DNA from: an uncultured Gemmatimonadales bacterium
GTDB taxonomy: Bacteria; Gemmatimonadota; Gemmatimonadetes; Gemmatimonadales; GWC2-71-9
Reading direction: 5' to 3'
Assembly: GCA_963821525.1 (NCBI GenBank)
Contig: CAWGED010000019.1
Coordinates: 384,001-448,000 of the forward strand
Length of the DNA stretch: 64,000 nt
The position numbers were made by a program. Positions within the stretch are counted from its first letter, which is position 1. The number at the start of each line of letters is the position of its first letter. Shown piece after piece: positions 28,501 through 31,500 of this stretch.

Positions 28501-31500
28501 CCGCCGCTGAGCAAAAGGCAGCGGAAGACAACAAGGGGCCCAGAGAAGTCCAACTGGTTTACATCCCACCGCCACCGAAGCCGGTAGCCAAACCGCAACC
28601 ACCGCCACCGACCCAGCCTCCTGCGGCGCCACTCACGCCGGGCCAGGACCAGACACCCGGTTCACTGGCCAAGGTGAGCCCGAAGCCGGAAGAAAACCCT
28701 AACGCTCCGCCCGAAGCGAAGCGTTCGGAGGCAACCGCCCCCGAGACCCAGGTTCCCCCAGACGACGGTGGCGCCACGAAGCATGAAGAGCAGCCCGTCT
28801 CGGCCTTCGCGCCTCTGGCGAAGAGGGCGGAGACGCCCAGTATCGAGTCCGAGGCCCAACGGATCTTCGGCCGTCCTCTCACCAGGGCTGGCGAGGAGTC
28901 CGGCGTTCGCGATTCGCGTCCCTGGGAATCGCCGCTGGATTGGACGTCGAATGGGTGCACGGCTCCAAAGCAGGATGACTCCACTGCCGCTGACAGCATG
29001 GGCGTGGTTCAGGGCCGCGTCTTCCGGGAGAACGGCCGGCCGTTGCCCGGAGCACATCTTCAGGTCCTCGGCACCCCCTACTACACCTATTCGGACCCGA
29101 ACGGCGCTTTTCGCCTGGTCTTCGATCGCTCGCTGGTGGACAACTGCCGGACTCAGTCGGTCCGCGTCTGGGCTCCGGGATACCGGGCGCGAGATCTGAT
29201 TCTGTATGTGGGGCCGGCGACGAGCTCGGATGTGGTACTGCATAACCACTAGCCGTCAGCCGTCAGCTATTAGCGGTTAGCGATTAGCTGTTAGCCGATT
29301 AGGGAAGAGACCCTCCGATGGAGTTGCCACCGGAGGGTCTCGTTCTTTCAGCGTCACTGCTAATCGCTAACCGCTAATAGCTAACAGCTAGTTCGGCGCG
29401 TGCACGGACACATTCCCATAGTCCCGGTTAAACCCGATGCCGGGCCCATGCACGTTGAAGCCGTAGTTGTTGTCGATCTTGGCAATGTACTGGCGCAGTG
29501 AGCCGGGGAACGAGTGGGTGCGCGCGTTCTTGCCGAAGGGGTCGGTGTACCAGGTCGTCGGACCATCCTTGTTGTCGATCTGGTTGCTGTTGATGTCTAC
29601 TCCGCGCCGGACCCCGTCGAACAGCGAGCGCGGGTCGTCATAGGTCAGGTTCAGGACGGCGCCATTCTGGGTCGAGTTGTCGCACAGCGACCCCTGCGCC
29701 CGGTTACCCGAGGCAGTGACTTCGTAGCACACGGAGATCGGCCGACCGGTGATGTCGGTCAGAGACGGGTCGTAGAACCGGCTCGGGAAGAACACCTGAT
29801 AGTAGGGATCGAAGTGGGCCAGGGTGTGGCCGTCCTGCGTCCTGACGCTGTTGGAGGTCTGCCAGCTCTCGTGCAGCGCGGAGAAGAAGTCCGACTGCTG
29901 CCCCGGAGGCACCAGCATGAACTGTTCGACGCAGGTACGGTCCGGGATAACCCGCTGGCCGCCGCCGTTGGGTGAATTGGCCGGCACGGCAGGTCCCACC
30001 TGGACGTGGACATTCCCGTCGCAGGTGCGAGTGAATTCGCCGGGCGTTCCGATCGCCGCCATGAAGACGGTGTGCAGCTCGGTCCCGTCGCTGCACTTCA
30101 GGTGGTAGACCAGCTCGTGCAGGTTGTTGGTAAAGGCATCCTTGGAGTGGGTGCCCTGATGCAGCTTGGTCAGCACGTCGCACTTGACCTTGAAAAGCGA
30201 GCCAGCGACGTCGCTGCCGAGGTCGAACTCGACGTCGTTCTCCCACTCGACCTTATGGCCGAAGTGATCCTCGTGCCGCACGTTCTGCGGGTCGTAGGTG
30301 TCGAGCGCCTCATTAGCCAGCCCGAACGGAATCGGTCCCACGTCCTGATAGAGCTTGGACCCGCGCGGGTCACGCCCGTGATCGTGGCCAAAGCTGCAGC
30401 CGGTCGCCGGGTCCACCGGCGGGTGCCAGGTCGGATAGCGCTTCCCGTCAGGTCCAACCACCGAATAGGCGTCGTGCTGGGCCTTGGTACAGGTGTCGTT
30501 GGGTCCCGGAGTCCACTGTCCGTACTGGAAGCTGGGGCCGATCTCAGACGGCGGATCATATCCCTGGAATCCGTCGCTCCCGCAGGCCACCACCCAGAGC
30601 AGAGCCTGGGGCAGCAGTATCCAGCGAGCGGCGCGGCGCGAAGCTCTCATCGAACGGATCATCAGGACCTCCTGCCCACGGGCTTGGGAAACGGCTGAAT
30701 CGACTGCGTGACCGGTCGGGACGGGAACATCAATGGAACGTCACCGACAGGCCGACCTGAATCAGACTGCTGTTCGCCGAGCCATCCACGACGGTGTCAT
30801 TGAAATGGAATTCGGAGCTGCTGGTGCCGATGAAATTGGCGTAAGGGCCGATCGCGACACTCTTGGAGATCGCGACATCGTAGCCGACGCCGATTTGCCC
30901 GCTTACCGCGGACGTCTTGAAGTGATCGTCATCCTTCGAGGCGGAGTACTTCGAAAGCCCGCCACCGGCCTTGACGTAGAAACCACTGCTCCGGCTGGGG
31001 TACATCCAGAACGAGAGGCCGAATGAGCCGAGCAGCTTGCTGACGTCCTGCTTGTCGTACCAGGCATCGACCTCGAGACCGAGCAGGAATTGGTCTGTGA
31101 GAGCGAAGCCCATCTTGGCAAAGCCGGAAACGTCGCCCTCGCGACTCTCCTGGCAGAGGTTGCACGACAGCTTGGCCGACCCGTATCCAAACCCGAACCC
31201 AATGAAGGGACCGCGCCGCGAAGGGACATCCTGCGCCTGGAGGCTGACCGCAGCCCCGACCAGGGTCACGATGCTGATTGCCAGACAAAGCAACGTTCTC
31301 GGCTTGCCGTGCATAGCGAAGCCCCTCGACACGAGTAATCAGATCACAGGGAATGCAGCGAAAGTGCTTACGACAGCGTTAAAACGACTGTGATTTGGAC
31401 CACAGTGGAAGGGCGTGCGAATGCTTGACGGCTAGAAACGAGACGGGAGACGCCCCGGTGGAGCGCCTCCCGTTTGAGAGCGTCGAGACTAACGAATGAT

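Follow-up and report, generated by a model that had tools for sequence, protein, structure and literature searches.

The spacer between two convergent ORFs in the genome of the Gemmatimonadales soil bacterium studied here is filled by a palindrome of about 140 nt (29251-29390), in which two inverted arrays of 7-nt units surround one non-repetitive GC-rich hairpin. The element is a heptanucleotide-repeat palindrome, in which two inverted 7-nt arrays enclose a conserved gene-end hairpin that is older than they are, and hundreds of related sites are spread over the genome. It may be that such palindromes are mainly self-maintaining repeat DNA and not designed terminators; we put the probability of this reading at about 0.45. 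All coordinates are positions in the window, which is the whole 64,000-nt stretch of DNA that was analysed (Table 1).

The stop codon TAG of the upstream ORF (29250-29252; the codon-usage ORF call places this ORF at 28470..29252) stands immediately before the first repeat unit, and the TAG of the downstream ORF (minus strand, 29388-29390) falls within the last one. The left-arm units at 29265-29302 are AGCTATT, AGCGGTT, AGCGATT, AGCTGTT and AGCCGAT. The right arm, with the units CTGCTAA, TCGCTAA, CCGCTAA, TAGCTAA and CAGCTAG, mirrors the left one as its reverse complement, unit variants included, and over 24 nt (29265-29288 and 29359-29382) the correspondence is exact. The inner hairpin has short T-rich tails on both strands, and its 5' arm is C-rich, a polarity opposite to that of the heptamer arms. 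The outer left array is a remnant of the unit that dominates the orthologous spacer of the congener G003.

The 151-nt example stretch was predicted to fold with -84.1 kcal/mol on the plus strand (z -10.7), close to the -80 kcal/mol given in the initial annotation, and with -96.5 kcal/mol on the minus strand (z -13.2); none of 200 shuffled sequences folded as well. A scan for the terminator consensus did not flag the palindrome. Rfam 15, searched at gathering score over the window, placed no curated RNA family on the heptamer elements, its matches being six tRNAs and one c-di-GMP-I riboswitch only.

Table 1. Coordinates of the heptamer-repeat elements in the window and of the two ORFs flanking the example palindrome.
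Feature	Position	Strand	Basis
Hairpin, arms AGTACCG / CGGTACT, between two tRNA genes of one cluster	18738..18845		TRF; fold
Short hairpin, GCCTTAA / CTTAAGG units	22638..22688		TRF; fold; orthologs
Hairpin, GATTGNN / NNCAATC, 5 units per arm, between convergent ORFs	26558..26643		TRF; fold; ORF calls
Upstream convergent ORF	28299..29252	+	ORF list; sequence
Outer left array AGCCGTC x2.4	29251..29267	+	TRF; ortholog comparison
Left (5') arm, TTAGCGG-type units	29265..29302	+	TRF period 7 and 14; folds
Inner non-repetitive GC-rich hairpin, GAGACCCTCCG ... CGGAGGGTCTC	29307..29341		Folds; 5-spacer alignment; RNAalifold
Right (3') arm, GCTAACA-type units	29359..29390	+	TRF; folds; reverse-complement match
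Downstream convergent ORF	29388..30662	-	ORF list; codon-usage ORF call; sequence
Unpaired arrays AGCCGTC then TTAGCTG, tandem spacer	40045..40079	+	TRF; fold; orthologs
Composite: GAGACGG x4, GTGAGAA x3, inner hairpin CACCCTCCGTGGAC..GTCCACGGAGGGTG, TTCTCAC x4	41486..41651		TRF; fold; ORF calls

Six sites of the window were evaluable in relatives, and all six carry arrays there. The hairpin of the tRNA cluster lies between the genes at 18656-18728 and 18857-18929 and folds with -70.2 on the plus and -89.0 on the minus strand; its orthologs have AGTTCCG arms. The short hairpin at 22638 is also present in G002, G003 and G004. The GATTGNN hairpin, in whose array the upstream ORF terminates, keeps five units per arm in its orthologs, where the units are GATTGAA/GATTTCA in G003 and AATTGNN in G001 and G002. 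The unpaired arrays at 40045 start directly after a stop codon, and the same spacer of G001 holds a paired hairpin. The ORF upstream of the composite at 41486 also terminates within the array, and the G004 ortholog of this element combines GAGACGG arms with a different inner palindrome.

The observation of 7-periodic hairpins made in the initial annotation proved real and reproducible by TRF, folds and shuffles. The row counts of the TRF genome scan were reproduced exactly (1657 for period 7, 432 for period 5 and 558 for period 8), and merging the period-7 arrays with at least three copies yielded 923 arrays at about 590 sites, where 932 arrays had been claimed. When the genome was shuffled in 200-nt windows and rescanned, 40 period-7 rows with at least three copies were left versus 1011 in the real sequence, while period 5 was at chance (432 rows real, 444 shuffled). 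As described earlier, the arrays are mainly non-coding (713 of 923 lie mostly outside conservative ORF calls, and 821 in the spacers of a second ORF call set) and their units are diverse: 157 classes are present in the genome, 61 of them in paired elements. The five largest classes comprise 43-66 arrays each, and the CAGCCGT x3 class has 55 arrays in the TRF table. For 277 of 923 arrays (281 of 932 in the initial annotation) an inverted partner was found, defined as a reverse-complement copy of the opening 21 nt with at most three mismatches within 250 nt; the reversed and complemented controls again gave 1 and 4. At other periods such partners number 1 of 96 (period 5) and 0 of 242 (period 6).

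The stop-proximal placement was likewise recovered, with a median stop-to-array distance of 7 nt (6 claimed) and a median array-to-start distance of 53 nt (37 claimed). Arrays occur in 129 of 609 convergent, 343 of 3264 tandem and 57 of 607 divergent spacers, or in 126 of 430, 337 of 1882 and 57 of 535 if only spacers of at least 40 nt are taken. The numerators match the earlier ones, and the denominators are larger because the ORF caller used here splits genes. An array is thus present in only 10-29% of spacers, which does not agree with the proposed default gene-end structure. Of the 526 spacers with an array, 222 fold into a clear arm-to-arm hairpin with at least 14 array-array pairs; only 60 of these are convergent, and divergent spacers hold 22 paired elements. 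The statement that such hairpins stand behind a third of convergent gene ends therefore holds for arrays under the gene calls of the initial annotation, but not for demonstrable hairpins. The decrease of array frequency from convergent through tandem to divergent spacers is expected of any DNA tolerated away from promoters. Neighbouring sites belong to one family more often than expected, namely 45 times in 448 (expectation 19.0 +/- 4.2). Often the arms surround a conserved hairpin of its own kind and combine two families in a nested arrangement.

The comparison covered five congeneric genomes, including the present one, and 36 relatives of other genera. In the spacers orthologous to the example, the stem of the inner hairpin is conserved in five of five genomes, and the arm units and their copy number vary. 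The arms there are of the types AGCGGTT, AGCCGTC x17, AGCTGTT and AAGCCAT, and they always match each other. In G003 the left arm consists of about 17 AGCCGTC units versus 2.4 here, and its two arms are unequal (about 17 and about 5 units). RNAalifold predicted 47 pairs for four orthologous sequences, five of them with compensatory changes. Chimeras joining left and right halves from different genomes at five loci folded as well as the parental mean in 13 of 64 cases, the mean energy ratio being 0.73.

Among 26 array sites of G003 and G004 whose anchors are colinear, 14 correspond to a period-7 array in the present genome, six of the 14 with the same unit, and some of the sites scored as absent here hold single or degenerate proto-units or a period-8 hairpin. 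In the most uniform family, 13 of 16 evaluable G004 sites are matched, in the orthologous spacer of the present genome, by arms that belong to the same superfamily, which indicates that these sites are old and are not recent insertions. One arm 21-mer, counted with at most one mismatch, has 62 copies in the present genome and 13, 55, 117 and 47 in the other congeners; no copies were found in the 36 relatives of other genera, and the reversed control also gave none. Of the earlier proposal that the arrays are built by local amplification and not by dispersal, the local growth is confirmed by the long G003 array and by the proto-units, but the arm families extend genome-wide with the unit order in common, which does not suit the second part.

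The polarity of the arms is absolute. Each unit family has one 5'-arm orientation (196 of 196; e.g., 20:0, 16:0 and 15:0). It is invariably one and the same repeat strand that directs its 3' end toward the middle of the palindrome. The 5' arm contains more G than C in 163 of 197 elements, whereas ordinary intergenic hairpins show the opposite lean (C>G in 125, G>C in 70, equal in 39). Unpaired arrays have G>C in 104 versus 59 cases on the left side of the spacer, and C>G in 139 versus 41 on the right side. The units fall into a few core superfamilies: GNNGATT (37 elements), GNNGTGA (32), GNNGGGA (23), GCNNTNA (21), GTACCKA (19) and GTCGATR (12). In 13 ortholog pairs of G004 and G000, the 4-nt cores are 85.4% identical and the flanks, which are mostly coding, 85.8%; the three variable unit positions are 66% and the loops 62% identical. 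Slippage alone would homogenise all seven positions equally. The pattern is in keeping with selection for a periodic motif, or with conversion that draws on a pool whose arrays have nothing but the core in common. The idea that the arms form a stop-codon module was rejected. G-oriented units contain an excess of TGA (326 of 756 versus 141.5) and a deficit of ATG, and all three frames are closed in 77 of 190 5' arms versus 17 of 190 3' arms. However, composition-matched shuffled units close them in 91 of 190 cases, almost as often as tiled first units (109 of 190), and several strictly polar families have no stop at all in the 5' orientation; the stops are thus a by-product of composition and leave the polarity unaccounted for.

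If the palindromes are mainly self-maintaining repeat DNA, slipped-strand mispairing would add and remove whole units, a process displayed by the copy-number differences among congeners. Arrays would persist only where 7-nt insertions and deletions are harmless, and spacers would become filled up to the stop codons. The complementarity of the arms, whose co-variation is observed, may be upheld by arm-to-arm copying or by selection for pairing. Homogenisation within arrays and between loci, probably by gene conversion, would then lead to the genus-specific families that are seen. Where transcribed, the arms would lengthen the gene-end hairpin by 15-60 base pairs on either strand, and an effect on mRNA 3' ends similar to that of REP sequences is plausible, as a secondary one. 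In favour of this reading are the excess of period 7, the turnover of arm units at orthologous spacers, the genus-specific families, the lack of a U-tract and of a mismatch bias on the sense strand, the preference among spacer types and the occurrence of similar repeats in Xanthomonas. Slippage and arm copying predict no polarity, so the fixed polarity counts against this explanation, as do the conservation of the cores and the persistence of array positions among congeners. Together with the 4-nt core, which also lies outside it, the polarity is the main reason why a functional reading stays in play. Nor does the explanation account for a period of 7 over 5, 6 or 9.

A doubtful alternative is a selected gene-end RNA element, the arms of which would extend the hairpin on both transcripts and serve as a bidirectional terminator independent of a U-tract, as a barrier to 3'-to-5' exonucleases or as an insulator between neighbouring transcripts. 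The position just past stop codons and the prevalence between convergent genes are in line with it, as are the very stable folds of both strands, the survival of complementarity through unit turnover and the persistence of sites across the genus. The strand-symmetric polarity would also yield the same kind of RNA hairpin, with a purine- and G-rich 5' arm and a C-rich 3' arm, from either strand. Intrinsic bidirectional terminators similarly place a stable hairpin right after stops, are enriched between convergent genes and are strand-symmetric, but the elements described here differ from them in the lack of a U-tract, in stems of 15-60 pairs with 7-nt periodicity, in a polarity that opposes the ordinary hairpins of the same genome and in the presence within a tRNA cluster. 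As the initial annotation had pointed out, no U-tract is seen (only 5% of 444 ends have five or more T among the 8 nt that follow the outer hairpin, and 3% of 66 tails do so behind inner hairpins) and the sense strand is not favoured, since single mismatches of the sense G:U type and of the A:C type number 68 and 73 in tandem spacers. Termination at the hairpin between the tRNA genes would lose three downstream tRNAs, and the terminator role put forward earlier is doubtful and unsupported on these three grounds. The elements in divergent spacers, the sharing of only 14 of 26 relatives' sites, the long G003 array, most of which is unpairable, and the conservation of the inner hairpin rather than the arms at the example also speak against a selected RNA element. 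It is unlikely that the arrays are a periodic binding platform, on which a multimeric protein would meet a conserved 4-nt core once per 7 nt, either in the duplex or in single-stranded RNA or DNA. HutP, with its NAG-N4 repeats, and TRAP read periodic sites with a similar logic. It is equally improbable that the arrays are strand-specific recognition tracks in a 7-nt register, whether for a multimeric protein that binds nucleic acids or for a polar machine that processes DNA. The arms have the geometry of Chi-like signals turned toward a break at the fragile tip of a hairpin. The GATT / AATC cores, conserved like coding flanks beside three spacer positions that drift like loops, the small number of core superfamilies, the fairly uniform arm length of about 4-5 units and a polarity as absolute as strand-specific recognition would give are what such a platform might leave. 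Binding of one protein per heptamer is mentioned for cold-shock proteins in the available part of a published account (PMC4679880). On the other hand, at least six cores would need several readers or one very tolerant reader, and a single motif for all units was only marginal, the 61 classes sharing 2.92 bits versus 2.59 +/- 0.11 bits after shuffling. No HutP-family gene (PF09021) was found in the genome, which is 81% complete by marker genes; conversion from a pool of core-sharing arrays could mimic core conservation, and paired arms would conceal single-strand sites.

It is very unlikely that the palindromes are non-autonomous mobile elements of the REPIN or MITE type, copied as an arm-loop-arm unit by a RAYT or another transposase. 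They do resemble REPINs, as far as the consulted part of their description goes (Bertels and Rainey 2011, PMC3116915), in being extragenic inverted doublets that form long hairpins, in having arms better conserved than the spacer (here 85% for the arm core versus 62% for the loop), and in forming lineage-specific families of tens to hundreds of members, with singlets beside doublets and strain-variable copy number (13 to 117 among congeners for one arm family). Same-family pairs within 250 nt are inverted in 83 cases and direct in 4, and four Y1_Tnp genes of 149-165 aa are present in the genome. In the same description, however, REP arms are imperfect palindromes and match the flanks of the cognate RAYT gene (PMC3116915), whereas the heptamer arms are direct arrays with no internal dyad symmetry, and in the flanks of each of the four Y1_Tnp genes there are ordinary GC-rich REP palindromes (e.g., CAGCGCCCCGAAGGGGCGCTG), which bear no relation to these arms. 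The RAYT link was dismissed for this reason, in agreement with the initial annotation, which had denied that a mobile REP element is involved. One Y1_Tnp gene has a heptamer hairpin nearby, like many genes. A MITE needs a conserved interior and a target-site duplication; here loops are unrelated among copies with identical arm ends, and filled and empty sites gave no convincing or consistent duplication. Two comparisons first resembled 6-7-nt duplications, one of which is better read as local amplification of a proto-unit, and the other may be no more than the retention of two gene ends that overlap. Arms bounding a unit the size of a gene were not found, same-family pairs 601-6000 nt apart being inverted in 29 and direct in 27 cases, and the orthology of the most uniform family across the genus is unlike new insertion. 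An artefact of long-read metagenome assembly or sequencing has a negligible probability, even though the completeness is 81%, gene calls are frameshift-ridden according to the initial annotation and two poly-T/poly-A junctions look artefactual. This reading is already refuted by independent assemblies, as four other assemblies of the genus have orthologous arrays and independent short-read contigs from soil and rhizosphere extend into arrays; the same class has also been published for finished Xanthomonas genomes (PMC4692102, available part). A search of public sequencing runs recovered DNA runs from soil and rhizosphere, with roughly half of the words present, and three runs labelled as RNA, with small shares. 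The run evidence consists of assembled contigs of X1, X3, X19 and X20, whose edges lie at or near arrays (X20 reaches up to 26565 and X19 up to 40082; X1 starts from 26612 and X3 from 29379). Contigs of DNA and RNA libraries both break at arrays, and these breaks are an assembly effect with no information on RNA ends. In one X1 contig, 22644-22694 is replaced by three letters; this may be a collapsed palindrome and was not counted as an empty site.

Repeats of this kind have already been reported in Xanthomonas, cyanobacteria and Beggiatoaceae, and the version described here is new and much more diverse. Short tandemly repeated repetitive (STRR) heptanucleotides occur in heterocystous cyanobacteria. 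The closest likeness is the GGGAATC repeat of X. campestris and X. axonopodis, which, in the accessible portion of its description, forms intergenic 7-nt arrays of mostly about four units in genomes of about 65% GC, often as convergent pairs with one array per strand (70 and 75 pairs among 186 and 183 repeats), is rare between divergent genes and differs in length and sequence at one spacer between close species (Rehm et al. 2015, PMC4692102). Over the 50 bp behind stops its G-rich strand is the sense one, and before starts the antisense one, which is the polarity found here. With inverted pairs under this strand rule in Xanthomonas, which belongs to a different phylum, and with CAGCCGT x3 in many phyla, the suggestion that the arrays are this lineage's own class is not supported. 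The Xanthomonas repeat is one unit family read as G-quadruplex-forming, whereas most of the 157 classes found here are unable to form such structures; units with a G3 tract occur only in some families (AGGGAGT, ACGGGAG), and the largest (AAGATTG, ACGGCTG, ACCGAGT) are devoid of it. The frequent enclosure of a conserved hairpin by the arms, and the nesting of two families within them, distinguish the Gemmatimonadales elements, and compensatory arm evolution, absolute polarity at the family level and the core/spacer conservation were not met in the consulted portion of the Xanthomonas account (PMC4692102). STRR and the TAACTGA repeats of Beggiatoaceae are similarly abundant intergenic heptamer arrays of few units, STRR with several unit types per genome, but TAACTGA is direct, lies just upstream of start codons and is inverted in only one case, according to the part of the report at hand (PMC4679880), which also cites the observation that long SSRs of prokaryotes favour a period of 7 (Mrazek 2007). 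Pairing is described as rare for the GGGGAYT repeats of Nostoc (PMC4692102, same portion). At CAGCCGT x3 loci of diverse genomes, an inverted partner was present within 300 nt in 6 of 120 cases, versus 277 of 923 arrays here within 250 nt. A literature search, whose coverage excluded subscription papers, did not find such repeats described in Gemmatimonadota.

The published heptamer cases involve one or a few units each, and the present genome alone has hundreds of sites and dozens of unit families. It offers three testable regularities: arms of absolute polarity, contrary to ordinary hairpins; units in which 4 nt form a conserved core and 3 nt a free spacer; and co-varying arms around a fixed core hairpin. 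By these, mutational explanations can be told apart from functional ones better than with the data on Xanthomonas or cyanobacteria. The elements also break short-read assemblies and blur gene ends, since several ORFs terminate within arrays, and this is relevant to the annotation of Gemmatimonadota MAGs. Should the arrays be recognition tracks after all, the heptamer preference of prokaryotes would reflect a protein footprint and not polymerase slippage, and no natural test set would be richer than this genus with its six or more core superfamilies.

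The example element lies between two convergent ORFs and is a palindrome in which arms of 7-nt units surround a non-repetitive inner hairpin (Table). A stretch of its left arm, 29265-29288, is the exact reverse complement of 29359-29382; the order of the unit variants in one arm is thus mirrored in the other. Folding of the 151-nt region gave -84.1 kcal/mol for the + strand (z -10.7) and -96.5 kcal/mol for the - strand (z -13.2), and none of the shuffled sequences was equally stable. Five further array-bearing spacers of the window possess this architecture, wholly or partially. 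The ORFs 26147-26587 and 40155-41537 have their stop codons within arrays, and repeat units encode their last codons; it appears that the arrays have grown into the gene ends. Arrays also occur between and beside the genes of a five-gene tRNA cluster on the - strand (18476-19120; arrays 18388-18420 and 18738-18845), and relatives carry additional arrays between the tRNA genes of this locus.

Table. Features of the example element, other repeat elements and transposase genes (window positions unless a contig is named)
Feature	Position	Strand	Source or context
ORF stop codon, TAG	29250-29252	+	ORF calls, sequence
AGCCGTC x2.4 array	29251-29267		TRF
TTAGCGG-type units	29265-29302		TRF
Inner non-repetitive hairpin GAGACCCTCCG ... 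CGGAGGGTCTC	29307-29341		between arms
GCTAACA-type units	29359-29390		TRF
ORF stop codon inside last repeat unit	29388-29390	-	ORF calls, sequence
CCCTCCG...CGGAGGG stem	29307-29341
CCCTCCG...CGGAGGG stem	41570-41603
Short ATTGAAA array	18388-18420		TRF
Array-bearing spacer	18738-18845		TRF, fold
Array-bearing spacer	22638-22688		TRF, fold
Array-bearing spacer	26558-26643		TRF, fold
Array-bearing spacer	40045-40079		TRF, fold
Array-bearing spacer	41486-41651		TRF, fold
Nested CACCTCATCCCGAG palindrome	C18:14747-15000
Nested CACCTCATCCCGAG palindrome	C4:23723 region
Nested CACCTCATCCCGAG palindrome	C5:929102-929296
Y1_Tnp (RAYT-like) gene	C12:49431-49904
Y1_Tnp (RAYT-like) gene	C12:7133-7579
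Y1_Tnp (RAYT-like) gene	C1:35912-36358
Y1_Tnp (RAYT-like) gene	C19:590035-590523

A repeated TRF scan of the assembly G000 (4.33 Mb, 64% GC, 19 contigs; window C19:384001-448000) reproduced exactly the row counts of the initial annotation, 1657, 432 and 558 for periods 7, 5 and 8. Merging yielded 923 period-7 arrays of at least three copies, 713 of them mostly outside a conservative ORF set and 821 in the spacers of a second ORF set. There were 1011 period-7 rows with at least three copies in the real genome versus 40 after shuffling within 200-nt windows, a comparison that leaves period 5 at chance level. Inverted partners accompany 277 of the 923 arrays, versus 1 in the reversed and 4 in the complemented control, and were found for 1/96 arrays of period 5 and 0/242 of period 6. 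Period 8 resembles period 7 (inverted partner 41/211; left arm G>C in 22/22), and period 9 does so weakly (10/144). A period-8 hairpin, GGTTAGAC, is located near C19 449600-449770, where the congener G003 carries GTGAGAA arms. Arrays occupy 129/609 convergent, 343/3264 tandem and 57/607 divergent spacers, at a median distance of 7 nt from the stop codon. Requiring at least 14 array-to-array pairs in folding without G:U pairs, hairpins were obtained in 222 of 526 array-bearing spacers (140 tandem, 60 convergent, 22 divergent). The counts and controls thus confirm the heptamer arrays and hairpins first reported; the proportion of a third of convergent gene ends holds for arrays under the gene calls used then, but not for proven hairpins.

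The arms possess a strict polarity. Each unit family keeps one orientation in the 5' arm, without exception among the 196 paired elements for which a 7-nt consensus was available (AAGATTG 20:0, ACCGAGT 16:0, AGGGAGT 15:0, AAGTGAG 12:0, CAGCCGT 9:0). The composition is A.27, C.13, G.38, T.22 in 5' arms and A.23, C.36, G.16, T.26 in 3' arms, and 163/197 elements have more G than C in the 5' arm. Since the two strands of a palindrome have the same reading, the polarity applies whichever of them is transcribed. Arrays classed as unpaired show the same polarity (left side of the spacer G>C 104 versus 59; right side C>G 139 versus 41), whereas ordinary hairpins in intergenic DNA free of arrays, counted from a perfect stem length of 9 upwards, tend towards the opposite (C>G 125, G>C 70, equal 39). 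A stem CCCTCCG...CGGAGGG is frequent among gene-end core hairpins, genome-wide 20 times in this order and 2 times in the reverse one, and their polarity, too, is opposed to that of the repeat arms. According to PMC4692102, the G-rich strand of the Xanthomonas GGGAATC repeats is sense within 50 bp after stops and antisense before starts. This strand rule is common to both systems, but that of G000 also covers ACCGAGT and CAGCCGT, which are polar without being G-rich; therefore composition alone is not the cause of polarity. G-oriented units are enriched in TGA and depleted in ATG, and all three frames are closed in 77/190 5' arms versus 17/190 3' arms. Stop codons were rejected as the cause: composition-matched shuffled units performed nearly as well, and several strictly polar families have no stop in that orientation.

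With strands collapsed, the 1011 rows represent 157 unit classes, and each of the five most populated contains 43-66 rows. In the AAGATTG family the arm is an almost constant sequence, and its 21-mer GAAGATTTCAGATTGAAGATT has 33 exact copies in G000, invariably at the inner end of the 5' arm, followed by loops unrelated from locus to locus. Allowing one mismatch, 62, 13, 55, 117 and 47 copies were counted in G000 and the congeners G001-G004, respectively, with no match in any of 36 genomes from other genera and none for the reversed pattern. Period-7 arrays number 31 per 100 kb in G000 and 16 in G004, 9, 2 and 16 in three genomes of the same family and 4, 10 and 7 in three of the same order; the excess is therefore strongest in the genus and graded outside it. 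CAGCCGT x3 occurs at no fewer than 120 loci in many phyla, with an inverted partner within 300 nt at 6/120 among the matches listed.

The orthologous region is 84-94% identical in the congeners, and the flanks of two loci of an 'uncultured Gemmatimonadales' record match G000 at 88-90% over 620 nt. At the example locus the inner stem is kept in all five genomes, but the arms differ: the units are AGC[GT][GA]TT in G000 and G002, AGCTGTT in G001, AAGCCAT/AAGCCGT in G004 and AGCCGTC in G003 (~17 units left, ~5 right). Within every genome the right arm complements its own left arm, and of 47 pairs predicted by RNAalifold from four orthologous spacers, 5 have compensatory double changes. At the spacer 26558-26643, both arms consist of 5 units in four genomes, of the types GATTGNN, GATTGAA/GATTTCA or AATTGNN, and at 18738-18845 the change between AGTACCG in G000 and AGTTCCG in relatives is compensated in the other arm. 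Chimeras joining the left half from one genome to the right half from another (five loci, n=64) had a mean folding energy of 0.73 relative to the parents, and only 13/64 matched the parental mean. The arms thus co-evolve. Across 13 G004/G000 pairs of the GATT superfamily, the 4-nt cores are 85.4% identical and the flanks, which are mostly coding, 85.8%; the values are 66% for the three variable positions and 62% for the loops. The arrays are also subject to turnover. Where array sites of G003 and G004 have colinear anchors in G000, a period-7 array is present at 14/26, with an identical unit at 6 of those 14; on inspection, some of the sites scored as 'absent' contained a period-8 hairpin or degenerate proto-units in single copy, an indication that arrays arise and decay in place.

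A ~120-nt palindromic element, whose half-site CACCTCATCCCGAG was found 49 times when both strands are counted, is nested in heptamer arms at several loci, and the G004 ortholog of window 41540-41620 has a different long palindrome in GAGACGG arms versus a short hairpin in G000; additional palindromes thus appear to accumulate at the centres of hairpins. A 15/27-nt tandem repeat at 62009-62105, rich in TCGTCG / GAAGTCC (TRF scores 86, 81), is probably a coding acidic repeat of the opposite strand. Long poly-T runs abut poly-A runs at C15:2877 and C16:8916; these are probably assembly artefacts on small contigs. A window scan against Rfam gave no family match on the elements; it detected a c-di-GMP-I riboswitch aptamer at 12939-13024 (+; RF01051, 46.4 bits, E 6.4e-6). 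No HutP-family gene was found in G000.

The preferred reading, with a probability of roughly 0.45, is that of self-maintaining heptamer-repeat palindromes. Slippage would add or remove whole units, arrays would be restricted to DNA tolerating 7-nt indels, arm complementarity would arise by arm-to-arm copying or pairing selection, and units would be homogenised between loci. The arrays would have accreted around gene-end hairpins already present, and any REP-like effect on mRNA ends would be secondary. A selected gene-end RNA device seems unlikely. The initial annotation had noted the lack of a U-tract, and U-tracts (at least 5 T in 8 nt) are rare, following 5% of 444 outer ends and 3% of 66 inner tails; the example is unflagged by a terminator consensus scan, and the hairpin 18738-18845 has tRNA genes of one and the same - strand cluster on either side, all of which argues against a classical terminator. 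The earlier view that the sense transcript is not the better-folding strand agrees with the single mismatches counted in tandem spacers along the sense strand, 68 of G:U and 73 of A:C type, a balance that speaks against selection on sense RNA alone. Public RNA data yielded assembled contigs only, and these break at arrays whether the library was made from DNA or RNA.

A periodic protein-binding track, favoured by the conserved core and free spacer of the units and by arm polarity, is quite doubtful. REPIN/MITE-type mobility is still less probable: of 20 G004 sites, 16 were comparable, and 13 of these have GATT-superfamily arms at the orthologous G000 spacer, often with different variable bases; copies of the GAAGATTTCAGATTGAAGATT family are thus mostly old. 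Same-family neighbours within 10 kb number 45/448 versus 19.0 +/- 4.2 under label permutation. Same-family pairs within 250 nt are 83 inverted versus 4 direct; at 601-6000 nt they are 29 inverted and 27 direct, and therefore no gene-sized composite element is evident. The four Y1_Tnp genes (149-165 aa) all have ordinary REP palindromes, rich in GC, in their flanks; at C1 and C12:7133 the loci are nearly identical including flanks, and these contig stretches may be duplicate assemblies. Concerted evolution between fixed, dispersed loci, an inferred mechanism, fits better than recent transposition, since sites are fixed, sequences are 'updated' to the family master in one genome and not in another, and families cluster locally. 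All other readings jointly have a very small probability, and an assembly artefact, excluded by five independent assemblies, a practically negligible one.

The elements belong to the prokaryotic heptamer SSR class, noted in 2007 as cited in PMC4679880 and PMC4692102. The non-subscription literature searched yielded no description of such repeats in Gemmatimonadota. The Xanthomonas GGGAATC system, which shares convergent pairs and the strand rule, is the nearest described case (PMC4692102). The STRR repeats of cyanobacteria and the TAACTGA repeats of Beggiatoaceae are arranged directly and rarely form pairs (PMC4679880, PMC4692102). REPINs, as outlined in PMC3116915, resemble the elements in their doublet-hairpin logic and in a spacer of lower conservation, but two of their defining features are absent here. 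Compared with the known class, the elements are far more diverse and are wrapped around conserved core hairpins, and their polarity, arm co-variation and core conservation have been quantified.
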